64,000 nucleotides of DNA from Eledone cirrhosa (Eukaryota): positions 126,666,001-126,730,000 of the forward strand of contig OZ024743.1 of assembly GCA_964016885.1 (NCBI GenBank), in the 5' to 3' direction. Below, piece after piece: positions 5,870 to 62,226 of this stretch. Every line of letters starts with the position of its first letter. Position 1 is the first letter of the stretch. The position numbers and the translations under genes were made by a program. The notes below the pieces were generated by a model. That model was not told where the DNA came from. It searched no databases and saw only the letters and a program-made list of their open reading frames with translations.

Positions 5870-6186
<317 letters not shown>

Positions 6187-13358: not shown

Positions 13359-13930
13359 TCATCTGTACTCTACCAACATGCTAAAATAGAACATAAGGGT
13401 AAATTAGAGAACATAGAAATAAAAATAGAATCTACACACAGAAAAGACGCAATGTTTAGACAAATCACAGAGGCAATAAACATAAAAGAATTACAACCAA
13501 AATTAAATAGAAAATATGAGTGGAACAGCAACATCACAACTTACAATTAAGGACAAAATGAAAAAACACACACACATAGAACAAACAACCAACTGGTAAC
13601 ATGTAAATAAACAAATATAAACACACACAGACACCCGGATGTGGCGCATGCGCAGACTGAGCACACAACACACACACAGAAACAAAATGGCGTAGGACAG
13701 AACAAAGGAGAGGCACAAAAACAAAGAAAAGAATCCCCAGTCACTGAAGAGGTCACAGAATGTGTGACGAAAGAACTTTGACAATATATAAACAACTATC
13801 TGATTGTGGAACCAACCAACCAGAAATTTGTAAATTCCTAAATTTATAAATTTATTAAATAAATTGAAGTGAAAGCAACTGGTGCGGTGTGTTTCTTATT
13901 GGCAACATGACCCTCCCAAAGTATAACAAT
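13359..13930 (+). mobile_element. Penelope-like 3' end: GIY-YIG C-terminus plus pLTR
   Basis: SVLYQHAKIEH...IKIESTHRKDAMFRQITEAINIKELQPKLNRKYEW ending at 13550, typical of the PLE endonuclease C-terminus, followed by a hammerhead-like motif. Confidence 0.75.
13740..13782 (+). ncRNA. Candidate minimal type I hammerhead ribozyme in the PLE pLTR
   Basis: GTCA-CTGAAGA-g-GTCACAgaatgTGTGAC-GAAAG-aa-CTT-TGAC: stems I and II and the core are present, stem III is minimal, triplet CUU. Confidence 0.55.
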
Positions 13931-13953
13931 ATATATATATATATACATACATA

Positions 13954-15608
<1,655 letters not shown>

Positions 15609-15609
15609 C

Positions 15610-16540
<931 letters not shown>

Positions 16541-17565: not shown

Positions 17566-19357
<1,792 letters not shown>

Positions 19358-21765: not shown

Positions 21766-24700
21766 GATAGATATCTTTCTTTATTTGGCACAGGGGCGTA
21801 CACAAATGGGACATTACAAGACGTGACGGCGGGGGTTTTACATAACATCTTTAACAATGATAAGTAACAATAAACTATATAAAAATAAAACAATTGAAAT
21901 CCCCATTAGGGGGGGGGGGGTAACGCTACTGCGGGTTGTTTTACACCCCGTGGATAGAACAACCCTCAACACCAGGAACACGTTTTGTAGGTGTTCCCGT
22001 CTTCCCTCTGTTTATCTACCTCAACCTACAGGTTTATATACAGAGATGGCCCATTCACCCGGGCCATTTTCGCCAAATTCACCCACCTTTTAGCGAATTT
22101 ACTGGGATGTAGCACCTCTCTCTCCACTCTCACCTTTCTTCTGAAGTAGTACTTAAAGAAAGGGATGAGTTGTTGTCCGGAGAGAAAGGTGCTTGCCCTC
22201 AGTCTTTTTAACCTCCTCCACCATATTACCTTTCGCCATAGCCCCCAGACAGATGAAGACCGCCTCTCCTTCATTCTTAAATGAAGGCGGCGGAGTGATC
22301 CTCACGATGAACTCGGCTGACAACTGGATGCGTCCCACACGTGACAGTAGCTGTTCGACATAATTCCACGGGTCGGTCACCCCAGGGCACTGAACATTTG
22401 CGTGCAGAACGGTTTCGATGTCCTGCTCGCATCTTGGACAGGTCATTTTGGCAGGATCTCTGCCAGGGCGTCCGTTCCTGTAGATTTTGTCTCGAACTCG
22501 TAGAGCTCCTCGGTAGCACTGCCAGACCAGAGACCTCTGGAAGTTATCCATAGGCCCTGGACGGAAAGTCCTCCCGAACAGACTGATTAGTTCGTCTTCC
22601 TCGATGCCTAGAGTTTCCCCGAGAACGTCGTCGCACTTATCCTCCACTAATCCCCTATAGAATGTCGAAGTGGAGTCTCCGCTGATTGCCATTTCCGCTT
22701 GGTAGAGAGCTGTGAGCGCCTGAGGGCACTTGAGGTGCCAGGCGCCCATTTTTGGTCTTCGCTTAACCAAGGACTGCAACTCTGTTAATGAGACGAGTTG
22801 TGGAAGAGCTCGTCTCACAAACGACAGCCACACCGGTTCGCCGGTCAGGAACACCTGGAGATGGCGTAGCCTCAGCGCGTGTTTGCGCATCATCAGCCAC
22901 GGCATGCCCAGCCCTCCGTTAGAAGGGTGTTGACAGCAGATGGCTCACCAATGGAGCCTGTTTCTTCCAGAGGAACTTGAAGAGTAGTCGTTCCATTTTG
23001 GTGAAGTATTCGCGGGGGCAAGGCACGATGACGGACGTAGTAGATGACGTAGTAGATGACGGACGCTATGTAAGTGTTCTCCACCTCCGCTCGACCTTTC
23101 AAGGAGAGTTTGCACTCAGCCCACTTCTGGGTGAGTGCAAACACCTTCGCCGTGACCTCGTTCCAGTTCTTGTCCACCTGGAGGTCTCGACCAAACCAGA
23201 CCCCGACCAATTTCACCGGTCCTTCCATCCAGCGTCCAACGACACTGTCGGAAGGCATGGGTTTGCCTCTCCATGTGCTGAGTTGCAAACCGACAGACTT
23301 GTTTGGGTTTAGTCTTGCTCCTGTCAACGTTTCGTATTCCTGTAATAGGTTGCCGATTACCCCGATGTCTGAGGTTTTCGACACCATTACGGTTATGTCG
23401 TCGGCATAGACCGACGCTGCTTTCCGCAGTCCTGGTTCGATCGGGATGCCCTGCAACAGCTCCAACTTCCGCAGTAATGGCTCGAGAGTCAGTACATACA
23501 GAATGGAGGAGAGAGGGCACCCCTGACGGATGGAACGCATGATTTGGAATGGCTCCGATAGGTAGCCATTCACCTTCACTGCCGAGTAGATGCTGGTGTG
23601 CATGGCAGCGATCCAGCCTCTGAAGACGGGACCGAAGCCGGCCGCCTTGAGAACCGCTTCCAAGTATTGTTGGTGGACCCTATCAAATGCCTTAGACTGA
23701 TCTAAATTGATCAGAGCCCCACCGAAGCTAGGTTTACACCTTACCCCCTCTATTATGTATCGCATGAGGGGGAGGCTGTCGTGTATGGACCTGGTCGGGA
23801 TTGCACACGTTTGCGCTTCCCCTACCAAGTTCTCGACGACAAGCGCCAGCCTGTCTGCTAACACCTTGGCCAAAATCTTTAACTCTGTGTTGAGCAGAGT
23901 TATGGGCCTGAAATTGCTTATCTCATCCCCCTTGTTCTCATCTTTTCTGATCAGCGTTACTACGCCTCTGCCTACAGAACTGGGAATCCTCCCGTTCTGC
24001 TGCCAGTTGCAATAGACCGCTTCGAGGACGCCAGAGAACAAGTCTGGCATGCTTATGTAAAATTCATAGGGTAGACCATCTAAACCGGGTGACTTGCGTT
24101 TCCCACAGCGACCTAGGGTATCTTCTATTTCACCCGCTGTGATCGGCCTTTCCCAACTCTCCGCATCCGTGCTCGAGAGTCGTGGTACGCCGTCGAGGTA
24201 GGAGCTGAAGTCCATCACCTCCCTTGATGTACCGCTTTACCCGAACAGTTGTGCAAAATGCTGCTGGAAGGCCGTGCACATTTGCTTGGATTCAAGTAGA
24301 ATGCGTCCATCTTTGTCTTGCAAGGACTGTATTGTGGATTTGTTGCCACTTTTCACCTCTGCCACTCGGGCCCAGCTAATAGCTTTGGCTCCCTCGTTTC
24401 TTAGAGCACGTGTTCTACTTCTGACAATACAACTTTCGTGTATCACGTTGAAGAACTGGTCTAGTGCCGTTCTCGCCGCTAGCACGTCAGCTGTACTGCC
24501 ATTCCTGAGTGCCTCTTCTACTTTAGCTACCAGTTCCTTTTCGGGTTTTTTTTTTCTAAAGCTACTTCCTTGCAAAATGCTATCAATTCTATTCTAATTG
24601 CTCTCTTGAGAGAGCTCCACCACCTGTTGTTGACGGTCGCCCCCGTCAACTGCCACTTAACTAAGGTGCTAATCCGTTTACTGTAGGCCTGACGCGTCGG

Positions 24701-26768: not shown

Positions 26769-29700
26769 AACCATGCTAACCGTTACACCACCGACGCTTC
26801 ATACAAGTCCGATCATCATTTAAGGTACTGAACTATACAAAATACTCGTGTCTACCAAAGCTGCTGCTTTAAATATTCTCTGAATTCAGCCAAGCTTTCT
26901 CTTAACATTGCTCTCTGGCGTGAGGGCCCATGGCACACAAGTTGAACTGATGTAGTAGAAGTTGATACTTTTTAACTTCTGTCCTTTCCCTCTTTTAATT
27001 GAATTATATATAAAAAAGGAATAACATTAGAATTTGAACAAACGGAAGACGACAGACTTTAAAACACAGCATAGCTTAGCAAGGCCGTTTGCTTGCAAGC
27101 GGATCGAATATTATTATTATTATTCGATATAACCCATACTTACATTTAAAAAAGAAATGTTATGATTGAAAAGATAAAACACATCCATAAGTGACTCAGT
27201 TGCGTCTGCCAGGAGCCGAATCCGGACCTACTGCTTGGAAAGCAACCATGCTTACCGTTACACCACAGACGTCTTTCCGATGCGGTGAATCATTTAAAGA
27301 TTCTAACCTATATATAATTTTTGTGTCTATCAAAGCTGCTGTTTTAATTTTTTTGCTATATTCATCCATTTTTCTCCTTCATTGTGTGTTGGCAATGTTC
27401 GAGGAGGCATTCTGTGCTCAACTGAAGGTAGCCGCATTGAAATAAGACCTGATACTAAACTACCTTTCCTCAAGACCCGACAAGCGTGTGCGTTCTACAT
27501 TTTGCGAGTATGTAGAGAATGTATTCGTGAAATCAAAAGAGTCCTTATGCAATGTGAAGTATCATTTAAGGATACTGAAAACCTGCATCTCTCGGAGACA
27601 AATCACCAAAGTTAAGGTGTCTTCTGCCTGACTTGTCACTCTACATTGAATTACGTATAGAAGTACCATGAATATCTCCCTCAGACTCTGTTGAACAAAC
27701 AGAGAGAAAGTAGAGAAATCTCTCGATAAACCCGTTTTTAGATTATCCTTCTTGTGTATGGTTCTGAAATAAACATGAAAATCATCAATGGTGGGATTTG
27801 ATTAGGGAACGTAAAGTACATCGTTTTATATGGAGTCCACAGGGTGTAGCAGAGATATGTTTTCCAACTGAGGGTGTAGATTTCTTCTTTTCTTAATATA
27901 TATTTCTCAACTACATATACTTGACATTTAGGAAGATATAGAGAGTCTAAAATGTTAGACATGTGACATACAGTAGAGATCGTGATGAAAATATAATAAG
28001 AAAAATCTGCATGAACAGTGTCTAAACAAACAAAATTAAAGATGTGTCGGCCGGGAGTCGAACCCGGATCGACTGTTTGGAAGGCAATAATGCTAACCGT
28101 TACACCACCGAAGCCTCATGCAGACTCTATCCTCAGTTAAAGATACGAAACCATAGAAAATATTTGTGTCTACCAAAGCTGCTGCTTTAAGTTTTCTCTG
28201 AACTCAGTCATGTTTTCTATACCTTCTCTTCTTTTTTATGATATATAAATATGTTAAATATTGGAAAGATCAAAGTATTTTATGTGATCTTTGTTGACTT
28301 CACGAAATCATTCGATACAGAAATCAGACCATGCTATGTGGCTGGTACTCAGGTGACACAGAGTGAACTCCAGTTCTGAACACTTACATGCGGTAATGGA
28401 AGACAAACTGGGCTGCATACAAAATTACAACAAACATTCTCTATTTGTGTGTTGGCAATGTTCGAGGAGGCATTCTGTGCTCAACAGAAGGTAGCCGTAT
28501 TGAAATAAGACCTGATATCAAACAACCTTTTCTCGGTAACTTGTTCTTCTACAGATCACCAATTCTAGAACCCGGATCGACTGCTTGGAAGGCAACCATG
28601 CTAACCTTTATACCACCGACACCTCATACAAACTCTACCATCACTTAAAGATACTGATCTATAGAAAATATTTGTGTCTACCAAAGCTGCTGCTTTAAGT
28701 TTCCTCTCAACTCGTCATGTTTCCTATACCTTCTCTTCTCTGTATGATATATAAATATGTTAAATATTGGAAAGGACAAAGAATTGTATGTGGTCTTAGT
28801 TGACATATAGAAATTAGGTCGTGCTGTGTGGCTGGTACTGAGAGTGTTTTGATACCCAGAAAAAAGTACCCTATTCATTGCTCTCTGGTATGAGAGCTTA
28901 TGTCATACAATTTGAGTTCCAGTTCTGAACAATTACATGTTGTAATGGGAGGCAAGCTGGGCTGGAAGCAAAATTACAAAAAAAAAAAATTCAAGGAAAC
29001 ATTCTGCTGTAAACTGAAGGTAGCCACGTTGAGATGAGAGTTAATATTAAATTACCTTTCCACCTGACCTGTTAACTTGTTCTTCTACAGATATCGTCTT
29101 AAATGACAGCGGTTGAGTGTGTCATTGTTGGTACGTGGTTTCCTTTCTTTTTCTTGTTTTTCCGGATAACCAACAGTTCTTGCCATTTGTCATCATGTCC
29201 ACGAGATATATTTGAGATATATTTCGCAACTGATTTACTAGAATTTGACGTTTTCCTTTTACCTGTGCCATTTCTCTCTTTTATTGGAATTATGAAAAAA
29301 AAAAAAGAAATCTTATGATTGAAAAGACAAAGCATCTCCATAAAATATATATAAAAAAATAAGCAAGCGTCGGCCGGGAGTCGAACCCGGATCGATTGCT
29401 CGTAAGGTAACAATGCTAACCGCTGCATCACCGACGACTCTTGCACAGATATGTTAGAGTATTGTACACGAGCATTAATATATGTTTATTCAATTCATAT
29501 GTGTTAATGTCTATGTATATGTTCGAGTTTGTGTATATGAAAAGCAAGCGTACTTCTTGTACATATTAGGCGTGTGTAGAGAATGCTTTCGTGAAATCAA
29601 AAGAGTCCATATGCAATGTGCTGAATCATTTAAGGATACTGAAACTCTTCATCCCTCGGAGACAAAACACTGAATTTGTGGTGTCATTTGCCCGTCTTCT

Positions 29701-32676: not shown

Positions 32677-35600
32677 ATGCCTCGACGAAGAAAAAAGAAA
32701 ACATCTGGTTGGTCTATCGATAGTGGAAAGAAAGCACGGCTAAGGACAGCCGAAGAAGGTGAGCAAGATAGTGGTCAACGCAAACAAGATCGGGACAGGC
32801 ATGCGAATAGAAGGATCGATGAGACTGATAAAGCAGGGGCTGCGCGTCTGGCGGAACAGAGGGAAAGAGACAGAAGCAGGAGAGATCATGAATCGGATGG
32901 TCGGAGAGCTGAGCATCTGGCGGAACAGAAGGAAAGAGACAGAAGCAGGAGAGATCATGAATCGGATGGTCGAAGAGCTGAGCCCTCTGGCGGAACAGAA
33001 GGAAAGAGACAGAAGAAGGAGAGATCATGAATCGGACGCTCGGAGAACTGAACAACTTTGCCAACAAACCATTAGGGATAGAGCAAGGAGAGTTCAACGA
33101 CGTGACCTCTCTGCTGATGTTGGACAGATGAATAAGATCTGTCTGTTGTCATGCAATGCTTTTTCATGGTGAAACTGCTAACTTTTGCTGTATGAATGGA
33201 AAAGTCAGGTTGGAGAATCTGCAGCCTTTACCCCAGGAACTTCACAGTTTATTTAGTACTGATCAACCTAGGGCAAACGAGTTCAGGAAGAACCTCAGAC
33301 AATACAACTGCCTGTTCCAAATGACATCTTTTGGGGCCGAAGAAGTTCGTTCCTCAAGGAGTGGATGGAATCCTTCTATCGTTATTCATGGTCAAATTCA
33401 CCATTACATCGGTTCCTTAATCCCTAATCCCAACGAACAACCCCAATTTCTTCAAATTTACTTCTTGGATCCTCAGGATAGTGTTGATTTGAGGATCAGG
33501 ATACTCCATAACGATGGCATTCAGCGCGACATAATTGTTTCCACTTTTGGCACAAGGCCAGCAATTATCCCAGTGCATTACTGGTACTTTATTTTATCGA
33601 CTCCGTAAGGATGAAAGGCAAAGTTAACCTCGGCAGGATTTGAACTCAGACCGCAAAGGGACGTAACTATGCTGGAAAGCATGGCGTCCGACCCTCTACC
33701 GATACTGCCAATCCACCGCCCTTTGATTATTGGAAATAATACTCAGACAATATAACCCTTACGTTGCTTCATTTCGAATGACAAAAGAACAAATTAAAAA
33801 TATTCCCGAAGCTTCGATTATTATTGATCCTGATAGGAGACCAGCAATGGAACATGAGAGAAGATTTAATGCACAAACTGAAAACGAAGTTGCCGTTATT
33901 ATACAAAACAGCACCGAACTTCAAGCAAAAGCACGGCACATTGTGTTGAAAGAAAAAGGGTCATGAAAGAGGGTCGTGAATTGGTGCTGAAGTACATGAT
34001 CCACGGTCCGAATTGCTCTAAATTGGAAAGACGGAACGTGCAGTAAGCGGTACCCTAAGCCTTTCAATGAATATACATTGTGTGGAGAGGACTCTTATCC
34101 TGTGTACAGAAGACGGTTTCCAGGAATGGGAGGATTTGAGGGGCACCAAGAAGGAAGGGGAAGCCGAAATATAACTTCGGAATGGGTGCTTCCCTACAAT
34201 ATGAAACTATTAAAACTGTTCAACTGCCACCTAAACGTAGAGATGTACTCTTCCTAGAAATCGATCAAATACGTTATCAAATATACCATAAAGGGCAGTG
34301 ATCAGGCAATGTTTGGAGTGAACAGGGAAGATGAGATAATACAGTATTTAACAGAAAGATATATCGGTCCTTCAGAAGCTGTTGCCTTGGTACTTGGATT
34401 TCCAATTCATGAGAGAGAACCGGCCGTAGGAAAATTAAATCTTCATTCGGGTTAATCCTGCTGTTAAAGTAAACAATAACATGGCTAAGACGACTCTTGG
34501 ATCTTTGCGATCGCGATCCGTTTGCAAACACATTGTATTATGCCGATGTGCCAAAGTTTTACACTTGGAGTAATAAGAGATGGGAAAGGAGAAAGGTGGG
34601 GAAAACAGTTGAGCAGTATCCAGGGATTTTTGAGGCGAACGTTTTGGGACGAGTATAGACTGTTTCTCCACGAAGTGGTAACCTGTATTATTTAAGACTC
34701 CCTCTGCATCACGTCAAAGGGCCAGTATCCTTCAACTCTTTGAAAATGTGTGATGGAGAACTGCCATTATTCAAATACGTCTGCAGAGAGAAAGGTTTGC
34801 TTCAATCGGATGATCATTGGCAGCAGACTCTGGAAGATGCTGAGGGAACAAGGCTTCCCAAAACCATGAGAGATCTATTCATTGTGCTCCTCAAAAATAC
34901 GGAAATTGACAATTCCAGTGCTTTATGGGTTCGATTTAAGCATTCGCTGTCTGAGGATTACCTTCAAATAGAAAAAAGTGCTACCAGAAACTCCAACCTT
35001 TTGATTAGCGAGAGACATTATGATCAATGTCTTCTGTATTTTGAAGACAAACTTAATGACCTGGGCCAAATAATATTGTTGCTAATCAGGATATTGGCAA
35101 TTAGGAGTTATTGCATGAATTGCAATAACCAGAGAAGAGCAGCGACGATTTGTAGAAGAGACGGAGCCTCTATTGAATAGTGAACAAAAACACGCGTATG
35201 ACTTCGTTTGTAACAGTTTAGAGACGAACACATCTGTATTGATTTTCATTGACGCTCCAGGTGGAACAGGAAAAACATTCCTGATTAACTTAATTCTTTC
35301 AAAAGTCAGGGGAAACGGTGACGTGGCTATTGCTGTTGCGTCATCTGGCATTGCCGCAACACTGATGCCTGGTGGAAGAACAGCGCATTCTAGGTTCAAA
35401 ATACCGATAGTAGTGAAAGAAAATGGTCTGTGCAACATTGATAAAAATTCAAAGATGGCAAACCTCTTCCAGCATACAAGGCTGATTGTTTGGGATGAGT
35501 GTCCTATGATTCGGAGGGAAAGCTTCGAAGCTGTTGACGTCACTCTGCGTGACATATGCGACAACAATGAGGCATTCGTGGAATTTTGACAATTTGCTGT

Positions 35601-36496
35601 GGCGATTTCCGTCAGCTTCTTCCGGTAGTGAAAAGGGGAAATGAAGCGGGCGTGGAAAACGCCTGCATTAAAAAATCCAACTTATGGCGAAGCTTCAAAA
35701 GATTTCAGTTGAAGACAAACATGCGATTGGGTGGGGGAGCAGGAGACTATTCACAGTTCCTATTGGATATTGGAGAAGATAAGATAAAAAAAACTGAAAA
35801 TGAGGAAATTATTTTGCCAAAAGAAATGGTTCTCCAAGCAACAACTATGGAAGAATGTATTGATTTCATCTACCCCTCATTCGACAATCCAGCTGAAGTG
35901 TTTTCGAATAATTGCATCTTAGTACCTCTCAATGAAATGATGAGAAGCATCAATTCCACCTGTATCAGACGCTTCCCTGGAACCATAAAGGAGTACCGAT
36001 CCTATAATTCTGTGAGTGATGGTGCCAATGCCACTCATTTCACGACTGAATTCCTTGATTCGGTTGAACTGTCAGGACTGCCACCACAAAACCTGGAATT
36101 GAAAAAAGGATCGCCAATAATTCTTATGAGAAACTTGAATCCTCCAAGGCATTGTAATGGAACGCGCATGATCGTGGAAGAACTGTACGACAATCTCATA
36201 GTAGCAAGAATCAACACTGCTGCTTTCAGAAATGCGATCGTTATGATACCTAGAATAAGAATTAATCTATCCGAAGGTGAGGATATCCCTTTGCAGCGAA
36301 GCCAATTCCCAGTTTAATCGTGCTTTGCTATGACTATGACTATGGTTTATCTGAAACGACCTGTATTCCAACACGGTCAACTGTATGTAGCCCTTAGCCG
36401 CGGAAAACGAAAAAAAAATGTCAGAGTGTTTCTGAAGGATACCCAGTCAACTAAGAATGGTGTCATCAAAAGCATTCTTTTGAACAAACTGTAACA
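32677..36496 (+). pseudogene. Helitron Rep-Pif1 helicase ORF, disrupted
   Basis: R/E-rich 69 bp repeats (32848-33050), CCMNGKV, RQYNCLFQMTSFG, MIHGP, CSKRYPK, NCHLNVE, IKYVIKY..KG, FIDAPGGTGKT, IVWDEC, GDFRQLLPV, LMRNL..CNGTR and HGQLYVALSR. Confidence 0.9.
33531..33723 (-). mobile_element. Nin-type SINE nested in the Helitron ORF
   Basis: Reverse complement of the 20396 SINE; it splits GIQRDII / LEIILRQYNPYV. Confidence 0.88.
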
Positions 36497-39751: not shown

Positions 39752-41527
39752 TATTTAATTTACTTTTTTATATAGACTCTCTTCAATAAGATTTTACTTA
39801 TTTTATTTTCACAACGATTTCTACTGCATGTGACATGTCTAACGTTTAGACTACCTATATCTGCCTAAATATCAAGTATAAGTAGTTAAGAAAACTATAT
39901 TGAGAACAGAATAATTCGGCACCCTCAGCTGGACAGCATATCTCTGCTACATCTCGAAGACTTGAGGTAAAACTGTCTACTTTACATTCCGATATGAAAT
40001 CACGCCACTGATGCTTTTCATATTTATTGGAGAACCCATACACAAGAAGGATGATATAAAAACGGGTGTTATCGAGAGATTTCTCTACTTGCTCCCTGCT
40101 TGCTCTCTCCCAGAGTCAAAGAGAGCTAGCAGCGTCCTTCTTCCTGGAATTCAATGTAGAGTGTGAGCACGCGCAAAATACACAAGAAATTTGGTGTTTT
40201 GTCTCTGCGAGATGCCCGTTTTCAGTATCCTTGAATGATACAACACATTGGGTAAGGCTTCTTTTGATTTCATTAAGTGGTTATTTCTACTATACACACA
40301 CACTTACACATATATACAAAGTCGAACATATATATAGTTAACACATATGTAATGAATTAACATGTATTAATTCTCGTGAACCATCTTGATATATCATAGA
40401 GGGAGGAGAAGGAGAAAAATGACAGAATTCTGCAAAAAAATTAAAGCAGCATTTTGGGGGTACACAAAGACTTTCTATTGTTTAGAATCTTAAAATGAGG
40501 CATCCGCCTGCATAGTCGTCGGTGGTGTAATGGCTAGCATGGTTTCCTTCCAAGCAGTTGATCCGGGATCGGCTGCCGCATAGGTTTAGCTTTTGATGGA
40601 AATGCTTTGTCTTTTTAATCATAACATTTCTTTGAATTTTATATATAATTCAAATAAGAGAGGGAAAGGACAGGGGTTAAAAACGTCAAATGCTTCTACA
40701 TCAGTTGCGAAATATATCTCAGACACATCTCGTGAACCAAATGACAAACGGCGTACTTTACATTCCGAGATCAAATCCCACCAGTTATGTCGTTGATATT
40801 TATTTGGGATACCATATGCAAGATGGATAACGTGCAGTCGGGGATAATCGCAGAATTTCTCTGTTTACTCAAAAATCCAAGTGAAAAAAATGGCAACATT
40901 TCTACTGGAAACCCAAAGTGGATTGAGGGGACGTAGTAAGAGAATCTTGAAACAACTCTAGAATTGTGGGTTGTTAAGAAAAACAAAAAAAGAAATACAA
41001 CCCACGTATTAATAATGACATCCTTGATCGCTGACATTTACGAGGAGATGAGTAAAAGAAAACGTTAACAAGTCAGGAGGAAAGGTGGTTTACTGTCAGG
41101 ATTTATCTCAATGTGGCTACCTAGGGTTGAGAGTAGAATGCTTCCTCGGACATTGGCAATACACAAAGAGAGAAATTCGTCTTTTATGTTTGCATGTAGC
41201 CCAGCTTGTCTCCCACTAACTAATGTAAGTGTTCAGAACTAGAGATCAACTTGTGTCACCTAGCTCTCATGCCAGAGAGCAATGACAACAGTTGTCTTTT
41301 CTGGCTATCAAAACCCTCCGCATACTAGCCACATAACAGGGCCTGATTTCTGTATCGAGTGATTTTGTGAAGACAACAAAGACCATATAAAATTCTTTGT
41401 TATTCCCAATATTTAACATATTTATATATCATACAGAGAAAAAAACGTATAGAAAACCTGACTGAGTTGAGGGAAAACTTAAAGCAGTAGCTTTGGTAGA
41501 CAGAAAAACTTTGTATTGTACAATATC

Positions 41528-41534
41528 TTTAAAT
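41528..41534 (+). promoter_or_regulatory. TATA-like TTTAAAT at about -27 to -21 of tRNA genes (example copy)
   Basis: Same position upstream of the main array genes and of 30999, and at -26 of the isolated 16685 gene whose flanks are otherwise unrelated. Confidence 0.5.
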
Positions 41535-41554
41535 GATGGGGAAACATCCCAGAG

Positions 41555-41626
41555 GCGTCGGTGGTGTAACGGTTAGCATGGTTGCCTTCTAAGCAGTCGA
41601 TCCGGGTTCGACTCCCGGCCGACGCA
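41555..41626 (+). tRNA. tRNA-Gly body with anticodon TCT (C36T)
   Basis: Single difference from consensus at 41590; A and B boxes and TTTTT intact. Confidence 0.88.
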
Positions 41627-43449
41627 TTTTTAATGTACTTTGTTTATATAGACATTCTTCAATAAGATTTTTCTTATTTTATTTTCACAACGATTTCTAC
41701 TACATGTGACATGTCTAACGTTTTAGACTACCTATATCTGCCTAAATGTCAAGTATAAGTAGTTAAGAAAACTATATTGAGAACAGAATAATTCGGCACC
41801 CTCAGTTGGACAGCATATCTCTGCTACATCTCGAAGACTTGAGGTAAAACTGTGTACTTTACATTCCGATATGAAATAACGCCACTGATGATTTTCATAT
41901 TAAAGACACAAAAAGGATGATATAAAAACGGGTTTTATTGAGAGATTTCTCTACTTGCTCCTTGCTTGCTCTCTGACACAGTCAAAGGGAGCAAGCAGCG
42001 TCCTTCTTCCTGGAGTTCAATGTAGAGTCTGAGCACGAGCAAAATACACAAGAAATTTGGTGTTTTGTCCCTTTGAAGTGACCGTTTTCAGTATCCTTAA
42101 ATGATACAACACATTGGGTATGGCTTCTTTTGATTTCACTAAGTGGTTATTTCTACCGTAAACACACACTTACACATATATACAAAGTCGAACATATATA
42201 TAGTTAACACATATGTAATGAATTAACATGTATTAATTCTCGTGTACAATACATGAACAATACGTGAACATCTCGATATATCATTGAGGGAGAACAAGGA
42301 AAAAAATGAGAGAATTCTGCAAAAAAAAATTAAAGCAACATCTTTGGGGCACACAAAGGCTTTCTATTGTTTAGAATCTTAAAATGAGACAGCGACTACA
42401 TAGGCGCCGATGGTGTAACGCTAGCATGGTTGCATTCTAACCAGTTGATCCGTTTTCAACTCTCGGCGACGCATAGGTTTAGTTTTTGATGGAAATGCTT
42501 TGTCTTTTTAATCATAACATTTCTTTGATTTTTTATATAATTCAAATAAGAGAGGGAAAGGACAGGGGTTAGAAACGTCAAATGCTTCTACATCAGTTGC
42601 GAAATATATCTCAGACACACCTCGTGAACCAAATGACAAACGGCGTACTTTACATTCCGAGATCAAATCCCACCAGTTATATTGTTGATATTTATTTGGG
42701 ATACCATATGCAAGATGGATAACGTGCAGTCGGGGATAATCGCGGTATTTCTCTGTTTACTCAAAAATCCAAGTGAAAAAAATGGCAACATTTCTACTGG
42801 AAACCCAAAGTGGATTGAGGGGACGTAGTAAGAGAATCTTGAAACAACTCTAGAATTGTGGGTTGTTAAGAAAAACAAAAAAAAGAAATACAACCCACGT
42901 ATTAATAATGACATCCTTGATCTCTGACATTTACACGGAGATGAGTAAAAGAAAACGTTAACAAGTCAGGAGGAAAGGTTGTTTACTATCAGGATTTATC
43001 TTAATGTGGCTACCTAGGGTTGAGAGTAGAATGCTTCCTCGAACATTGGCAATACACAAAGAGAGAAACTCGTCTTTTATGTTTGCATGTAGCCCAGCTT
43101 GTCTCCCACTAACTAATGTAAGTGTTCAGAACTAGAGATCAACTTGTGTCCCATAGCTCTCATGCCAGAGAGCAATGACAACAGTTGTCTTTTCTGGCTA
43201 TCAAAACCCTCCGCGTACCAGCCACATAACAGGGCCTGATTTCTGTATCGAGTGATTTAGTGAAGATAACAAAGACCATATAAAATTCTTTGTTATTCCC
43301 AATATTTAACATATTTATATATCATACAGAGAAAAAAAAACGTATAGAAAACTTGACTGAGTTGAGGGAAAACTTAAAGCAGTAGCTTTGGTAGACAGAA
43401 ACATTTTGTATTGTGCAATATCTTTAAATGATGGAGTATCATCCTAGAG

Positions 43450-43521
43450 GCGTCGGTGGTGTAACGGTTAGCATGGTTGCCTTCCAAGCAGTCGATCCGC
43501 GTTCGACTCCCGGCCGATGCA
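43450..43521 (+). tRNA. trnG: tRNA-Gly(TCC) variant, G52C plus C70T (G3-U70)
   Basis: gatccgcgttcga at ~43500 and ccgatgca with T at 43518. Confidence 0.8.
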
Positions 43522-47233: not shown

Positions 47234-47305
47234 GCGTCGGTGGTGTAACGGTTAGCATGGTTGCCTTCCAAGCAGTCGATCCGGGTTCGACTCCCGGCCG
47301 ATGCA
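47234..47305 (+). tRNA. trnG: tRNA-Gly(TCC) variant, C70T only (G3-U70)
   Basis: Single difference at 47302; TTTTT terminator. Confidence 0.92.
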
Positions 47306-49197: not shown

Positions 49198-50973
49198 TTT
49201 TTAATGTACTTTTTTTTATAGACATTCTTCAATAAGATTTTTCTTATTTTATTTTCACAATGATTTCTACTACATGTGACATGTCTAACGTTTTAGACTA
49301 CCTATATCTGCCTAAATATCAAGTATAAGTAGTTAAGAAAACTATATTGAGAACAGAATAATTCAGCACCCTCAGTTGGACAGCATATCTCTGCTACATC
49401 TCGAAGACTGGAGGTAAAACTGCGTACTTTACATTCCGATATGAAATCACGCCACTGATGATTTTCATATTAAAGAGACAAAAAGGATGATATAAAAACG
49501 GGTTTTATCGAGAGATTTCTCTACTTGCTCCCTGCTTGCTCTCTGCCACAGTCAAAAGGAGCAAGCAGCGTCCTTCTTCCTGGAGTTCAATGTAGAGTGT
49601 GAGCACGAGCAAAATACACAAGAAATTTGGTGTTTTGTCCCTGTGAAGTGACCGTTTTCAGTATCCTTAAATGATACAACATATTGCATAAGGCTTCTTT
49701 TGATTTCACTAAGTGGTTATTTCTACTATAGACACACACTTACACATATATACAAAGTCGAACATATATATAGTTAACATATATGTAATGAATTAACATG
49801 TATTAATTCTCGTGTACAATACATGAACAATACGTGAACATCTCGATATGTCATAGAGGGAGGACAAGGAGAAAAAATGACAGAATTCTGCAAAAAAGAA
49901 ATTAAAGCAACATCTTTGGCGCACACAAAGACTTTCTATTGTTTAGAACCTTAAAATGAGGCATCCGCCTGCATAGGCCTCGGTTGTGTAATGGCTAGCA
50001 TATGCTTAGTTTTTGATGGAAATGCTTTGTCTTCTTAATCATAACATTTCTTTGATTTTTATATATAATTCAAATAAGAGAGGGAAAGGTCAGGGGTTAA
50101 AAACGTCAAATTCTTCTACATCAGTTGCGAAATATATCTCAGACACATCTCGTGAACCAAATGACAAACGGGGTACTTTACATTCCGAGATCAATCCCAC
50201 CAGTTACGTCGTTGATATTTATTTGGGATACCATATGCAAGATGGATAACGTGAAGTCGGGGATAATCGCGGAATTTCTTTGTTTACTCAAAAGTCCAAG
50301 TGAAAAAAATGGCAACATTTCTACTGGAAACCCAAAGTGGATTGAGTGGACGTAGTAATAGAATCTTGAAACAACTCTAGAATTGTGGGTTGTTAAGAAA
50401 AACAAAAAAAAGATATACAACCCACTTATTAATAATGGCATCCTTGATCGCTGACATTTACGAGGAGATGAGTTAAAGAAAACGTTAACAAGTCAGGAGG
50501 AAAGGTTGTTTACTATCAGAATTTATCTCAATGTGGCTACCTAGGGTTGAGAGTAGAATGCTTCCTCGGACATCGGCAATACACAAAGAGAGAAATTCGT
50601 CTTTTATGTTTGCATGTAGCCCAGCTTGTCGCCCACTAACTAATGTAAGTGTTCAGAACTAGAGATCAACTTGTGTTACATAGCTCTTATGCCAGAGAGC
50701 AATGACAACAGTTGTCTTTTCTGGCTATCAAAACCCTCCGCGTACTAGCCACATAAGAGGGCCTGATTTCTGTATCGAGTGATTTTGAGAAGATAACAAA
50801 GACCATATACTATTCTTTGTTATTCCCAATATTTAACATATTTATATATCATACAGAGAAAAAAACGTATAGAAAACCTGACTGAGTTGAGGGAAAACTT
50901 AAAGCAGTAGCTTTGGTAGACAAAATCATTTTGTATTGTACAATATCTTTAAATGATGGGAAACATCCCAGAG

Positions 50974-52937: not shown

Positions 52938-54714
52938 TTTTTAATGTACTTTTTTTTTATAGACATTCTTCAATAAGATTTTTCTTATTTTATTTTCACA
53001 ATGATTTCTACTACATGTGACATGTCTAACGTTTTAGACTACCTATATCTGCCTAAATATCAAGTATAAGTAGTTAAGAAAACTATATTGAGAACAGAAT
53101 AATTCAGCACCCTCAGTTGGACAGCATATCTCTGCTACATCTCGAAGACTGGAGGTAAAACTGCGTACTTTACATTCCGATATGAAATCACGCCACTGAT
53201 GATTTTCATATTAAAGAGACAAAAAGGATGATATAAAAACGGGTTTTATCGAGAGATTTCTCTACTTGCTCCCTGCTTGCTCTCTGCCACAGTCAAAAGG
53301 AGCAAGCAGCGTCCTTCTTCCTGGAGTTCAATGTAGAGTGTGAGCACGAGCAAAATACACAAGAAATTTGGTGTTTTGTCCCTGTGAAGTGACCGTTTTC
53401 AGTATCCTTAAATGATACAACATATTGCATAAGGCTTCTTTTGATTTCACTAAGTGGTTATTTCTACTATAGACACACACTTACACATATATACAAAGTC
53501 GAACATATATATAGTTAACACATATGTAATGAATTAACATGTATTAATTCTCGTGTACAATACATGAACAATACGTGAACATCTCGATATGTCATAGAGG
53601 GAGGACAAGGAGAAAAAATGACAGAATTCTGCAAAAAAGAAATTAAAGCAACATCTTTGGCGCACACAAAGACTTTCTATTGTTTAGAACCTTAAAATGA
53701 GGCATCCGCCTGCATAGGCCTCGGTTGTGTAATGGCTAGCATATGCTTAGTTTTTGATGGAAATGCTTTGTCTTCTTAATCATAACATTTCTTTGATTTT
53801 TATATATAATTCAAATAAGAGAGGGAAAGGTCAGGGGTTAAAAACGTCAAATTCTTCTACATCAGTTGCGAAATATATCTCAGACACATCTCGTGAACCA
53901 AATGACAAACGGGGTACTTTACATTCCGAGATCAATCCCACCAGTTACGTCGTTGATATTTATTTGGGATACCATATGCAAGATGGATAACGTGAAGTCG
54001 GGGATAATCGCGGAATTTCTTTGTTTACTCAAAAGTCCAAGTGAAAAAAATGGCAACATTTCTACTGGAAACCCAAAGTGGATTGAGTGGACGTAGTAAT
54101 AGAATCTTGAAACAACTCTAGAATTGTGGGTTGTTAAGAAAAACAAAAAAAAGATATACAACCCACTTATTAATAATGGCATCCTTGATCGCTGACATTT
54201 ACGAGGAGATGAGTTAAAGAAAACGTTAACAAGTCAGGAGGAAAGGTTGTTTACTATCAGAATTTATCTCAATGTGGCTACCTAGGGTTGAGAGTAGAAT
54301 GCTTCCTCGGACATCGGCAATACACAAAGAGAGAAATTCGTCTTTTATGTTTGCATGTAGCCCAGCTTGTCGCCCACTAACTAATGTAAGTGTTCAGAAC
54401 TAGAGATCAACTTGTGTCACATAGCTCTTATGCCAGAGAGCAATGACAACAGTTGTCTTTTCTGGCTATCAAAACCCTCCGCGTACTAGCCACATAAGAG
54501 GGCCTGATTTCTGTATCGAGTGATTTTGAGAAGATAACAAAGACCATATACTATTCTTTGTTATTCCCAATATTTAACATATTTATATATCATACAGAGA
54601 AAAAAACGTATAGAAAACCTGACTGAGTTGAGGGAAAACTTAAAGCAGTAGCTTTGGTAGACAAAATCATTTTGTATTGTACAATATCTTTAAATGATGG
54701 GAAACATCCCAGAG

Positions 54715-54786: not shown

Positions 54787-56603
54787 TTTTTAATGTACTT
54801 TGTTTATATAGACATTCTTCAATAAGATTTTTCTTATTTTATTTTCACAACGATTTCTACTACATGTGACATGTCTAACGTTTTAGACTACCTATATCTG
54901 CCTAAATGTCAAGTATAAGTAGTTAAGAAAACTATATTGAGAACAGAATAATTCGGCACCCTCAGTTGGACAGCATATCTCTGCTACATCTCGAAGACTT
55001 GAGGTAAAACTGTGTACTTTACATTCCGATATGAAATAACGCCACTGATGATTTTCATATTAAAGACACAAAAAGGATGATATAAAAACGGGTTTTATTG
55101 AGAGATTTCTCTACTTGCTCCTTGCTTGCTCTCTGCCACAGTCAAAAGGAGCAAGCAGCGTCCTTCTTCCTGGAGTTCAATGTAGAGTGTGAGCACGAGC
55201 AAAATACACAAGAAATTTGGTGTTTTGTCCCTGTGAAGTGACCGTTTTCAGTATCCTTAAATGATACAACACATTGGGTAAGGCTTCTTTTGATTTCACT
55301 AAGTGGTTATTTCTACCATAAACACACACTTACACATATATACAAAGTCGAACATATATATAGTTAGCACATATGTAATGAATGCACATGTATTAATTCT
55401 CGTGTACAATACACGAACAATACGTGAACATCTCGATATATCATAGAGGGAGGACAAGGAGAAAAAATGACAGAAGTCTGCAAACAAAAAAATTAAAGCA
55501 ACATCTTTGGGGCACACAAAGACTTTCTATTGTTTAGAATCTTAAAATGAGGCATCCGCCTGCACAGGCCTCGGTGGTGTAATGGCTAGCATGGTTGCAT
55601 TACAAGCAGTTGATCCGTTTTCAACTCTCGGCCGACGCATAGGTTTAGTGTTTGATGGAAGAGCTTTGTCTTTTTAATCATAACATTGTATATATAATTA
55701 AAATAAGAGAGAGAAAAAACAGGGGTTAAAAACGTCAAATTCTACTACATCAGTTGCGAAATATATCTCAGATACATCTCGTGAACCAAATGACAAACGG
55801 CGTACTTTACATTCCGAGATCAAATCCCACCAGTTATGTCGTTGATATTTATTTGTGATACCATATGCAAGATGGATAACGTGAAGTCGGGGATAATCGC
55901 GGAATTTCTCTGTTTACACAAAAGTCCAAGTGAAAAAAATGGCAACATTTCTACTGGAAACCCAAAGTGGATTGAGGGGACGTAGTAATAGAATCTTGAA
56001 ACAACTCTAGAATTGTGGGTTGTTAAGAAAAACAAAAAAAGAAATACAACCCACGTATTAATAATGACATTCCTGATCTCTGACATTTACATGGAGATGA
56101 GTAAAAGAAAACGTTAACAAGTCAGGAGGAAAGGTTGTTTACTATCAGAATTTATCTCAATGTGGCTACCTAGGGTTGAGAGTAGAGTGCTTCCTCGGAC
56201 ATTGGCAATACACAAAGAGAGAAATTCGTCTTTTATGTTTGCATGTAGCCCAGCTTTTCTCCCACTAACTAATGTAAGTGTTCAGAACTAGAGATCAACT
56301 TGTGTCACATAGTTCTCATGCCAGAGAGCAATGACAACAGTTGTCTTTTCTGGCTATCAAAAACCTCCGCGTACTAGCCACATAAGAGGGCCTGATTTCT
56401 GTATCGAGTGATTTTGAGAAGATAACAAAGACCAAATAAAATTCTTTGTTATTCCCAATATTTAACATATTTATATATCATACAGATAATAAAACCTATA
56501 GAAAACCTGACTGAGTTGAGGGAAAACTTAAAGCAGTAGCTTTGGTAGACAGAACAATTTTGTATTATTCAATATCTTTAAATGATGGGATAACGATCCA
56601 GAG

Positions 56604-58571: not shown

Positions 58572-60388
58572 TTTTTAATGTACTTTTTTTATATAGACAT
58601 TCTTCAATAAGATTTTTCTTATTTTATTTTCACAACGATTTCTACTACATGTGACATGTCTAACGTTTTAGACTACCTATATCTGCCTAAATATCAAGTA
58701 TAAGTAGTTAAGAAAACTATATTGAGAACAGAATAATTCGGCACCCTCAGTTGGACAGCATATCTCTGCTATATCTTGAAGACTTGAGGTAAAACGGTGT
58801 ACTTTACATTCCGATATGAAATAACGCCACTGATGATTTTCATATTAAAGACACAAAAAGGATGATATAAAAACGGGTTTTATTGAGAGATTTCTCTACT
58901 TGCTCCTTGCTTGCTCTCTGCCACAGTCAAAAGGAGCAAGCAGCGTCCTTCTTCCTGGAGTTCAATGTAGAGTGTGAGCACGAGCAAAATACACAAGAAA
59001 TTTGGTGTTTTGTCCCTGTGAAGTGACCGTTTTCAGTATCCTTAAATGATACAACACATTGGGTAAGGCTTCTTTTGATTTCACTAAGTGGTTATTTCTA
59101 CCATAAACACACACTTACACATATATACAAAGTCGAACATATATATAGTTAGCACATATGTAATGAATGCACATGTATTAATTCTCGTGTACAATACACG
59201 AACAATACGTGAACATCTCGATATATCATAGAGGGAGGACAAGGAGAAAAAATGACAGAAGTCTGCAAACAAAAAAATTAAAGCAACATCTTTGGGGCAC
59301 ACAAAGACTTTCTATTGTTTAGAATCTTAAAATGAGGCATCCGCCTGCACAGGCCTCGGTGGTGTAATGGCTAGCATGGTTGCATTACAAGCAGTTGATC
59401 CGTTTTCAACTCTCGGCCGACGCATAGGTTTAGTGTTTGATGGAAGAGCTTTGTCTTTTTAATCATAACATTGTATATATAATTAAAATAAGAGAGAGAA
59501 AAAACAGGGGTTAAAAACGTCAAATTCTACTACATCAGTTGCGAAATATATCTCAGATACATCTCGTGAACCAAATGACAAACGGCGTACTTTACATTCC
59601 GAGATCAAATCCCACCAGTTATGTCGTTGATATTTATTTGTGATACCATATGCAAGATGGATAACGTGAAGTCGGGGATAATCGCGGAATTTCTCTGTTT
59701 ACACAAAAGTCCAAGTGAAAAAAATGGCAACATTTCTACTGGAAACCCAAAGTGGATTGAGGGGACGTAGTAATAGAATCTTGAAACAACTCTAGAATTG
59801 TGGGTTGTTAAGAAAAACAAAAAAAGAAATACAACCCACGTATTAATAATGACATTCCTGATCTCTGACATTTACATGGAGATGAGTAAAAGAAAACGTT
59901 AACAAGTCAGGAGGAAAGGTTGTTTACTATCAGAATTTATCTCAATGTGGCTACCTAGGGTTGAGAGTAGAGTGCTTCCTCGGACATTGGCAATACACAA
60001 AGAGAGAAATTCGTCTTTTATGTTTGCATGTAGCCCAGCTTTTCTCCCACTAACTAATGTAAGTGTTCAGAACTAGAGATCAACTTGTGTCACATAGTTC
60101 TCATGCCAGAGAGCAATGACAACAGTTGTCTTTTCTGGCTATCAAAAACCTCCGCGTACTAGCCACATAAGAGGGCCTGATTTCTGTATCGAGTGATTTT
60201 GAGAAGATAACAAAGACCATATAAAATTCTTTGTTATTCCCAATATTTAACATATTTATATATCATACAGATAATAAAACCTATAGAAAACCTGACTGAG
60301 TTGAGGGAAAACTTAAAGCAGTAGCTTTGGTAGACAGAACAATTTTGTATTATTCAATATCTTTAAATGATGGGATAACATCCTAGAG

Positions 60389-60460: not shown

Positions 60461-62226
60461 TTTTTAATGTACTTTTTTTATATAGACATTCTTCAATAAG
60501 ATTTTTCTTATTTTATTTTCACAACGATTTCTACTGCATGTGACATGTCTAACGTTTCAGACTACCTATATCTGCCTAAATATCAAGTATAAGTAAGAAA
60601 ACTATATTGAGAACAGAATAATTCGGCACCCTCAGTTGGACAGCATATCTCTGCTATATCTTGAAGACTTGAGGTAAAACTGTGTACTTTACATTCCGAT
60701 ATGAAATCACGCAACTGATGATTTTCATATTAAAGAGACAAAAAAGATGATATAAAAACGGGTTTTATCGAGAGATTTCTCTACTTGCTCCCTGCTTGCT
60801 CTCTGCCACAGTCAAAAGGAGCAAGCAGCGTCCTTCTTCCTGGAGTTCAATGTAGAGTGTGAGCACGAGCAAAATACACAAGAAATTTGGTGTTTTGTCC
60901 CTGTGAAGTGACCGTTTTCAGTATCCTTAAATGATACAACACATTGGGTAAGGCTTCTTTTGATTTCACTAAGTGGTTATTTCTACCATAAACACACACT
61001 TACACATATGTACAAAGTCGAACATATATATAGTTAACACATATGTAATGAATGAACATGTATTAATTCCCGTGTACAATACACGAACAATACGTGAACA
61101 TCTCGATATATCATAGTGGGAGGACAAGGAGAAAAAATGACAGAAGTTTGCAAACAAAAAAATTAAAGCAACAGCTTTGGCGCACACAAAGACTTTCTAT
61201 TGTTTAGAATCTTAAAATGAGGCATCCGCCTGCATAGGCGTCGGTTGTGTAATGGCTAGCATAGGCTTAGTTTTTGATGGAAATGCTTTGTCTTTTTAAT
61301 CATAACATTTCTTTGATTTTTATATATAATTCAAATAAGGTCAGGGGTTAAAAACGTCAAATTCTTCTACATCAGTTGCGAAATATATCTCAGACACATC
61401 TCGTGAACCAAATGACAAACGGCGTAATTTACATTCCGAGATCAAATCCCAACAGTTCCATCGTTGATATTTATTTGGGATACCATATGCAAGATGGATA
61501 ACGTGAAGTCGGGGATAATCGCGGAATTTCTCTGTTTACACAAAAGTCCAAGTGAAAAAAATGGCAACATTTCTACTGGAAACCCAAAGTGGATTGAGGG
61601 GACGTAGTAAGAGAATCTTGAAGCAACCCTAGAATTGTGGGTTGTTAAGAAAAACAAAAAAAAGAAATACAACCCACGTATTAATAATGAAATCCTTGAT
61701 CTCTGACATTTACACGGAGATGAGTAAAAGAAAACGTTAAAAAGTCAGGAGGAAAGGTTGTTTACTATCAGGATTTATCTCAATGTGGCTACCTAGGGTT
61801 GAGAGTAGAATGCCTCCTCGGACATTGGCAACACACAAAGAGAGAAATTCGTCTTTTATGTTTGCATGTAGCCCAGCTTGTCTCCCACTAACTAATGTAA
61901 GTGTTCAGAACTAGAGATCAACTTGTGTCACATAGCTCTCATGCCAGTGAGTAATGAGAACAGTTGTCTTTTCTGGCTATCAAAAACCTCCTCGTACCAG
62001 CCACATAACCGGGTCTGATTTCTGTATCGAGTGATTTTGAGAAGATAACAAAGACCATATAAAATTCTTTGTTATTCCCAATATTTAAAATATTTATATA
62101 TCATACAGATAATAAAACGTATAGAAAACCTGACTGAGTTGAGGGAAAACTTAAAGCAGTAGCTTTGGTAGACAGAAAAATTTTGTATTATTCAATATCT
62201 TTAAATGATGGTATAACATCCCAGAG

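Follow-up and report, generated by a model that had tools for sequence, protein, structure and literature searches.

Genes that combine the tRNA backbone of one isotype with the anticodon of another are a known class, and backbone/anticodon mismatches of this kind are pervasive in eukaryotic tRNA gene families. Rogers & Griffiths-Jones (2014; PMC3923123) described 31 alloacceptor shifts, 28 of which arose by single-base changes and some of which were unaccompanied by any change in the tRNA body; the shifts were attributed to tRNA gene redundancy. In a 2026 survey of Caenorhabditis (PMC13010820), each species harbored 19-31 fixed isotype-switched genes together with many rare polymorphic ones; the switches were ascribed to transcription-associated mutagenesis, and widespread mischarging was judged unlikely. 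Isotype-switch alleles are usually rare and recent, and they are presumed to be mildly deleterious (PMC3923123, PMC13010820). In humans, 18 anticodon mutants were present among 84 people (Berg et al. 2019, PMC6779403).

The tRNA gene at positions 41555-41626 of a 64,000-nt stretch of the Eledone cirrhosa genome (hereafter the window, meaning the whole stretch that was analysed) is a new instance of this class. Its backbone is that of a glycine tRNA, and a substitution in the anticodon has given it an arginine anticodon. As in the published isotype-switch alleles, a single anticodon substitution occurred within a high-copy, redundant family, and it altered the third anticodon position, changes at which constitute the second commonest class of alloacceptor shift (PMC3923123, PMC13010820). 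Many, but not all, of the described shifts show covarying mutations in the tRNA body, whereas the 41555 copy has none relative to the consensus of its family. The published shifts were established from orthology and synteny or from allele frequencies; in contrast, the 41555 copy was compared only with paralogous tandem copies from one genome. Among 12 of the 32 matching passages of PMC3923123, the Gly/Arg pair is not named. The gene also resembles the human anticodon-variant tRNAs (PMC6779403; for tRNA-Ala variants, PMC12084884) in that these are natural single-nucleotide anticodon mutants, which occur among the hundreds of tRNA genes of healthy genomes. The mistranslators expected in humans, however, are serine, alanine, and leucine tRNAs, whose synthetases ignore the anticodon (PMC6779403). 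GlyRS reads both C35 and C36, and the 41555 variant is thus predicted to lose charging, unlike the human Ser, Ala, and Leu variants.

A glycine tRNA with a UCU anticodon does have a precedent in ascidian mitochondria, where tRNA-Gly(U*CU) reads AGR codons as glycine (Kondow et al. 1999, cited in PMC7047913); an earlier, sequence-only reading of the locus had cited this system, and it did so accurately. The ascidian tRNA is nevertheless the product of an additional, conserved mitochondrial gene, with a modified U34 and a fixed change of the code (PMC7047913), whereas the 41555 gene is a single nuclear copy in an animal in which standard tRNA-Arg(UCU) genes are abundant. The locus lies at 126.7 Mb on a 378.8-Mb nuclear contig of a 3.0-Gb genome, and neither a mitochondrial location nor a reassigned code applies to it. 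Because it is nuclear and the standard tRNA-Arg(UCU) genes have been kept, it is not an analogue of the ascidian system. The yeast pair of tRNA-Asp and tRNA-Arg offers a further comparison: there, positions 35 and 36 alone can carry arginine identity on a foreign body. Yeast ArgRS relies little on position 20 (PMC9976931), whereas the A20 of the native tRNA-Arg(UCU) genes of this genome suggests an ArgRS of the A20-dependent type.

The UCU copy and its relatives in the genome

The gene at 41555-41626 is 72 nt long, lies on the forward strand, and has a Gly(UCC) body with a UCU anticodon, as determined from ARAGORN, Rfam RF00005, and the consensus of the array in which it is found. Read directly, its sequence is GCGTCGG-TG-GTGT-AACGGTTA-GCAT-G-GTTGC-CTTCTAA-GCAGT-CGAT-CCGGG-TTCGACT-CCCGG-CCGACGC-A, in which the anticodon TCT (T34-C35-T36) occupies 41588-41590 within the loop CTTCTAA. 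A listing of the Gly-type copies places it at 71 identities in 72 positions with the array tRNA-Gly(UCC) consensus. The sole difference is C36T at 41590, so the description of the copy as otherwise consensus, made from the letters alone, was right. T36 is the derived base, the array consensus being C, and its context is CpA rather than CpG. ARAGORN names the gene tRNA-Arg(tct) on the forward strand. With the Rfam tRNA model (RF00005) it ranks first among the 27 tRNA matches of the window, at 62.7 bits as against 62.5 for perfect Gly copies; by score and by identity it is a cloverleaf tRNA with the sequence of the Gly(UCC) family. Minimum free energy folding gave non-cloverleaf structures for the UCU copy and a UCC copy alike (z about -1.4 to -1.6), and the covariance model is the relevant test. 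The marks of a tRNA pseudogene (broken stems, a low covariance score, a lost promoter or terminator) are absent: the copy has the top score in the window, and its flanks and internal boxes are those of its intact sisters. It has kept the glycine determinants G1-C72, C2-G71, G3-C70, and A73 (direct reading; list as in PMC9976931 and PMC3990555). Of the two anticodon determinants for glycine, C35 and C36, it has kept C35, but position 36 is U. The feature is real, a redundant tRNA-Gly gene cleanly mutated in its anticodon, and in annotation it should be flagged as an isotype mismatch and excluded from the tRNA-Arg count.

A pattern search of the animal's own genome with the 24-nt core of the anticodon arm, allowing any anticodon, returned 42 sites, 41 with TCC and one, the 41555 copy, with TCT; some of the TCC copies are dispersed, over 10 or more other contigs. 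Allowing up to two mismatches increased the number of sites to 60, and the only further Arg-type anticodons were in two decayed copies. A decayed Gly body with the anticodon TCT lies at the far end of the cluster (window coordinate 113678-113749; L006:9678-9749; C4:126779703); it is of pseudogene grade, with five further changes (in linear positions, G12A, A37C, C49G, C61T, and G67A). A dispersed, heavily mutated Gly-derived copy has TCG, also an arginine anticodon, at the anticodon position (G000:C10:31491906-31491978; L016:476-548) and is unrecognised by ARAGORN. Among the matches of the own-genome pattern search, the 41555 copy is the sole structurally intact Gly body with an Arg anticodon.

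Anticodon hits recur among the degenerate members of the cluster. Decayed Gly-derived copies at 29365-29438 (reverse strand), 55568-55642, 59353-59427, and 72681 (L002:8681-8752) have acquired the valine anticodon TAC via C35A. A mutation hotspot at C36 was also considered but is not supported, there being no clear excess of changes; the other position-36 changes (T at 42438, T at 113713, and the G of the dispersed C10 copy) are all in decayed copies, and the search with up to two mismatches favors the recovery of T36.

The arginine genes that the 41555 copy would have to resemble are well represented. A pattern running from the D loop to the anticodon of native tRNA-Arg(UCU) has at least 28 matches in the genome, and ARAGORN called Arg(tct) in five of the six native loci scanned. 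All five native genes aligned have GGATAG (with A20) and G73, whereas the 41555 copy has GGTTAG (with U20) and A73; the presence of U rather than A at position 20 had likewise been recognised in the sequence-only reading. Native genes such as that at L008:1485-1557 are 73 nt long, as against the 72 nt of the 41555 copy, and share 39-41 of 72 positions with it, including the complete anticodon loop CUUCUAA (positions 32-38). The copy thus has the UCU anticodon with C35 and U36, but it lacks both A20 and a body related to the Arg isoacceptors, and these last two grounds exclude it from the tRNA-Arg family.

The tandem array and its mutational load

The 41555 gene is part of a tandem array on the forward strand (39680-64000 within the window, delimited by ARAGORN on 124 kb and by unit lengths), made up of units of ~1.84-1.90 kb, with one of 2.08 kb. 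Each unit has a tRNA-Gly gene and, ~850 bp after it, a degenerate older tRNA-Gly copy. The array runs beyond the end of the window to about window coordinate 73.8 kb; from there, as far as about 114 kb, the tRNA-Gly cluster is organised differently. In the window, ARAGORN called 17 Gly(tcc) and one Val(tac) in addition to the Arg(tct) at 41555; over 124 kb it made 49 calls (45 Gly(tcc), two Val(tac), and two Arg(tct)), of which 11 are identical to the consensus. Tandem Repeats Finder returned six short-period rows, four of them dinucleotide microsatellites and the other two short tandem repeats with periods of 96 and 69; the 1.9-kb period is absent from its output because the longest period was 500. 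The retrieved portion of the literature on cephalopod tRNA arrays held nothing evidently relevant.

The 17 tandem units are mutually 94.6-99.9% identical. The ~1895-bp unit that holds both TCT copies, u41555 (41155-43049, forward strand; unit alignment, with the start set 400 bp upstream of the tRNA), is 94.8-97.0% identical to the 16 other 1.9-kb tandem units. The nearest of these is u43450, at 97.0%; identity to the degenerate u39680 is 89.1%. The u41555 spacer differs from the consensus at 43 of 1750 sites (2.5%), so the unit did not arise by recent duplication, and T36 falls on the branch private to it. Units u49126 and u52866 are 99.9% identical, and those two must therefore stem from a very recent duplication. 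In three units, the same deletion has left just the first ~25 nt of the pseudogene (49960-50060, 53700-53800, and 61230-61330). Past the 1.9-kb array (L002-L006, about 75-111 kb) is a higher-order repeat of about 6.5 kb, with its period at 84657, 91184, 97730, and 104281; each repeat has four Gly copies, of which the first is intact, a second has G22C/C32T/G42A, a third has G3T/T33G/G51C, and another is inverted and strongly diverged.

Elsewhere in the window, a retroelement remnant at 22156-24236 (reverse strand) comprises a 447-aa ORF with an RVT_1 match (E 3e-25) and then an ORF with a weak zf-RVT match. A PIF1-like helicase at 35122-36317 (forward strand; E 2e-45, with a Pif1 2B domain) is split over two frames near 35571-35589 and is probably a decayed Helitron-type element, although the Helitron assignment is a guess. 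The dinucleotide microsatellites are (AT)n tracts of 919 bp (15622-16540) and 252 bp (13929-14180), an (AG)n tract of 139 bp (6041-6179), and an (AC)n tract of 148 bp (18268-18415).

Mutated tRNA genes are the rule in the array: 12 of the 17 tandem units have one, in one case by a 1-nt deletion. The 16 full-length tandem copies show 13 distinct substitutions, for which the probability that at least one falls in the three anticodon positions is 0.45. With 13 variable sites in 72 and odds of that order, an anticodon mutant somewhere in the array is expected and is not surprising. Variable sites are as dense in the tRNA (14/72) as in the background spacer (311/1726; OR 1.1, p 0.75), whereas per-copy divergence is lower in the tRNA, 17/1223 or 1.4% versus 2.5% in the spacer (OR 0.55, p 0.013); these and the other Fisher tests treat the units as independent, which overstates independence because the units share ancestry, and the p-values are approximate. 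The tRNA bodies of the array are under weak constraint.

Another change in the array bears on charging. C70T, at a CpG, converts G3-C70 to G3:U70, the major AlaRS identity element, in the copies at 47234-47305 (position 47302) and 43450-43521 (position 43518), and in the former it is the sole change; a third C70T is in a degenerate inverted copy at window coordinate 107806-107877 (L006). By the logic of PMC6779403, G3:U70 variants of tRNA-Gly are predicted to insert alanine at glycine codons, and the 47234 copy arguably has a better chance of mistranslating than the UCU copy.

The degenerate tRNA-Gly-derived pseudogene of u41555 (42403-42476, forward strand; defined by alignment, 848 bp downstream of the 41555 gene and below the Rfam gathering score) also reads TCT, at 42436-42438. 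That it differs in this from its sisters had been pointed out in the sequence-only reading, and so it does: the eight full-length sisters aligned have TCC (six) or TAC (two), and three more units have only the truncated stub. The pseudogene has six private changes in 70 aligned sites, and a rough estimate (six private changes over about 72 sites) puts the chance that one of them is exactly C36T at 3-4%. Under independent neutral mutation, the T36 shared by gene and pseudogene is a coincidence only, and on that rough estimate it counts against the explanation that we favor below. A very short gene-conversion tract between the two, confined to the interval from position 32 to position 39, at both of which the two still differ, is a possible alternative source of the shared base.

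Every signal that might allow transcription of the 41555 gene has been retained. By the box consensuses, we take the Pol III A-box region to be TGGTGTAACGG (41562-41572, forward strand) and the B box to be GGTTCGACTCC (41605-41615, forward strand); both are identical in the intact sister and dispersed copies, and the B box is perfect. A TATA-like TTTAAAT at -27 to -21 (41528-41534, forward strand) and a T5 run right after A73 (41627-41631, forward strand) that resembles a Pol III terminator are common to the tandem copies, and each has a putative role in transcription. Between the TATA-like element and the gene, the inner 5' flank (-20 to -1; for this copy, 41535-41554) is the most variable part of the 1.9-kb unit across the 17 units compared: 11 of its 20 sites are variable, against 18% in the background (OR 5.6, p 2.4e-4), and its divergence is 7.7% versus 2.5% (OR 3.3, p 6.6e-7), the tRNA body being the least diverged part. 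Active tRNA genes are characterised by conserved bodies and divergent inner 5' flanks, with a peak 10-15 bases upstream and more divergence in the 5' than in the 3' flank, and transcription-associated mutagenesis at such genes generates an excess of C-to-T and G-to-A changes (Thornlow et al., PMC6130373). From the same contrast between flank and body, we infer that the array has been transcribed in the germ line, and C36T would be a typical product of that process. Like its sisters, the 41555 copy is probably a template for Pol III. Its flawless structure, its top covariance score, and the retention of all cis signals make an RNA product likely and a function conceivable, and the latter is a point against the favored explanation.

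Predicted charging and competing explanations

In every system studied, the identity of tRNA-Gly resides in C35, C36, the first three acceptor pairs, and N73 (PMC9976931). C36 is in the identity sets of E. coli, T. thermophilus, yeast, and A. pernix and is read directly by both types of GlyRS; the human and plastid enzymes read both anticodon cytosines (PMC9976931, PMC3990555, PMC10164559). Giege & Eriani (2023, PMC9976931) nevertheless list no experimentally determined identity elements for tRNA-Gly of higher eukaryotes. The core arginine set is A20, C35, and U or G at position 36, and in yeast C35 with U36 or G36 is dominant, and C35 with U36 sufficient, tRNA-Asp being a known substrate of the yeast ArgRS; an A73 discriminator is acceptable for arginine in bacteria (PMC9976931). 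A plant cytosolic ArgRS that requires A20 left UCU tRNAs without it uncharged (PMC4615739). The sequence requirement for t6A37 is matched by U36-A37-A38 (PMC13276492). The roles that the sequence-only reading had assigned to C36 (for GlyRS) and to C35 with U36 (for ArgRS) agree with this literature, and the three fates that it had envisaged for the gene product, a new tRNA-Arg, a Gly mistranslator, or an uncharged decoy, were judged to be the right ones.

Our preferred explanation, to which we assign a probability of roughly 0.6, is that the 41555 gene represents a near-neutral mutation of a redundant tRNA-Gly(UCC) copy and that its RNA would be a poor substrate for GlyRS and no more than a weak one for ArgRS. 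With its boxes, TTTAAAT, and T5 run all unchanged, the copy would be transcribed by Pol III like its sisters. Loss of C36 would remove one of the two conserved anticodon determinants for GlyRS, and glycylation of the RNA is consequently predicted to drop sharply. C35 and U36 would provide ArgRS with its anticodon determinants, but A20, which is kept in all native tRNA-Arg(UCU) genes examined, is missing, and arginylation should therefore be inefficient; any that did take place would be harmless and phenotypically silent, since arginine would be placed at AGA/AGG. A37, newly within U36-A37-A38, is predicted to become a potential target of t6A modification. Most probably, the RNA would be largely uncharged or weakly arginylated. 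On balance, the set of more than 40 Gly(UCC) gene copies would be reduced by one and miscoding would be negligible; given that 41 other Gly(UCC) sites have an intact core and that the Arg(UCU) genes number at least 28, any dosage effect should be negligible either way. Further decay of the copy, or its erasure by conversion from neighbours, would be the expected fate.

The sequence-only reading had gone further in proposing an anticodon shift caught in progress. That part is not sustained: the body shows no change towards Arg identity in a genome with at least 28 canonical tRNA-Arg(UCU) genes, and with point changes in 12 of 17 array copies, a hit in the anticodon has the chance of about 45% calculated above. 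A completed, functional shift, in which the RNA is arginylated by the cytosolic ArgRS via C35 and U36 and adds a Gly-derived member, with correct reading of AGA/AGG, to the tRNA-Arg(UCU) set, is possible but unlikely. The anticodon loop shared with native tRNA-Arg(UCU), the dominance of positions 35 and 36 in yeast, the tolerance of A73 in bacteria, and the existence of single-substitution shifts that involve no body changes, such as Asn/Lys in Drosophila (PMC3923123), all speak for it. U20 in place of the A20 of five of five native genes and a body with only 39-41 of 72 positions in common with native Arg tRNA speak against it, as do a single-copy allele that has no covarying change and the large set of native genes, which leaves no demand evident. 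If the ArgRS of this animal is of the yeast type, for which C35 and U36 suffice, the 41555 RNA would be a working tRNA-Arg. The opposite possibility, that GlyRS still charges the RNA via the acceptor stem, A73, and C35 and so delivers glycine at a low level to AGA/AGG arginine codons, we consider very unlikely. All of those elements (G1-C72, C2-G71, G3-C70, A73, and C35) are indeed kept, the ascidian mitochondrial tRNA-Gly(U*CU) demonstrates that a UCU tRNA can be glycylated (PMC7047913), and no experimentally determined identity elements are listed for tRNA-Gly of higher eukaryotes (PMC9976931). However, C36 is in the Gly identity set of every system tested and is read by both GlyRS types, natural mistranslation is known mainly from tRNAs for Ala, Ser, and Leu, which are charged by synthetases that ignore the anticodon (PMC6779403, PMC13010820), and one gene among more than 40 Gly copies, set against at least 28 Arg(UCU) genes, would yield very little product.

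Two further explanations were considered. Large tRNA arrays often hold many inactive copies, and the array, or this copy, might be transcriptionally silent, in which case C36T is a mere substitution in repeated DNA; mutations in 12 of 17 copies and a density of variable sites in the tRNA equal to that of the spacer are in keeping with silence. None of the runs listed as matching the stretch is an RNA run, which is a blank and does not argue for silence. We regard silence as quite unlikely, because the tRNA body has diverged per copy about half as much as the spacer (p 0.013), divergence in the inner 5' flank is 3-fold that of the background (p 6.6e-7), a signature linked to active tRNA genes (PMC6130373), and the promoter and terminator elements are intact. 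Alternatively, the T at 41590 might be an assembly or consensus error, or a variant unrepresentative of the individual, which we rate the least probable of all. The read-derived records come from two kinds of run, Logan contigs of a single sample (three runs) and RAD-seq of other individuals (three runs). Among the records listed, none spans 41590 without a differing letter, and those that span it come from TCC sister copies: in run X3, the contig over 41590 bears C and derives from sister copies (again among the records listed). In run X4, five of five reads have C there, but 84% of the X4 matches run into unlike sequence, and these reads are thus from other loci; the RAD-seq reads of other individuals that were compared are from other loci. 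Logan contigs fragment at each paralogous variant and drop rare ones, so the absence of T from the records listed proves nothing. Repeat collapse or polishing would pull the base towards the consensus C, not away from it, and the search with the 24-nt core found no other copy from which an otherwise intact gene could have received the T. The unit-specific upstream flank 41525-41568 has an exact match in an independent 58-nt contig (depth about 9.6x), and the 2.5% private divergence of the unit makes a real substitution far more probable a priori.

Implications for the tRNA gene family

Should this nuclear tRNA-Gly(UCU) be expressed and yet remain a substrate of GlyRS, the animal would have a standing source of low-level Arg-to-Gly mistranslation at AGA/AGG. 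We think this highly improbable. Such a tRNA would parallel, in the nucleus, the tRNA-Gly(U*CU) of ascidian mitochondria; the C36T of the adjacent pseudogene would then hint at a recurrent or converted origin within the unit; and the gene would offer a first handle on C36 as a GlyRS determinant in a higher eukaryote.

On the preferred explanation, of a redundant glycine gene that has suffered a near-neutral anticodon mutation, the 41555 change by itself matters little. The copy is nonetheless a ready natural test substrate, a clean C36U variant beside wild-type copies, for the dependence of animal GlyRS and ArgRS on position 36 and on A20. More generally, the array illustrates the mutational load of large, transcribed tRNA gene arrays, which here includes an anticodon mutant, a pair of G3:U70 copies, and several copies with structural damage.
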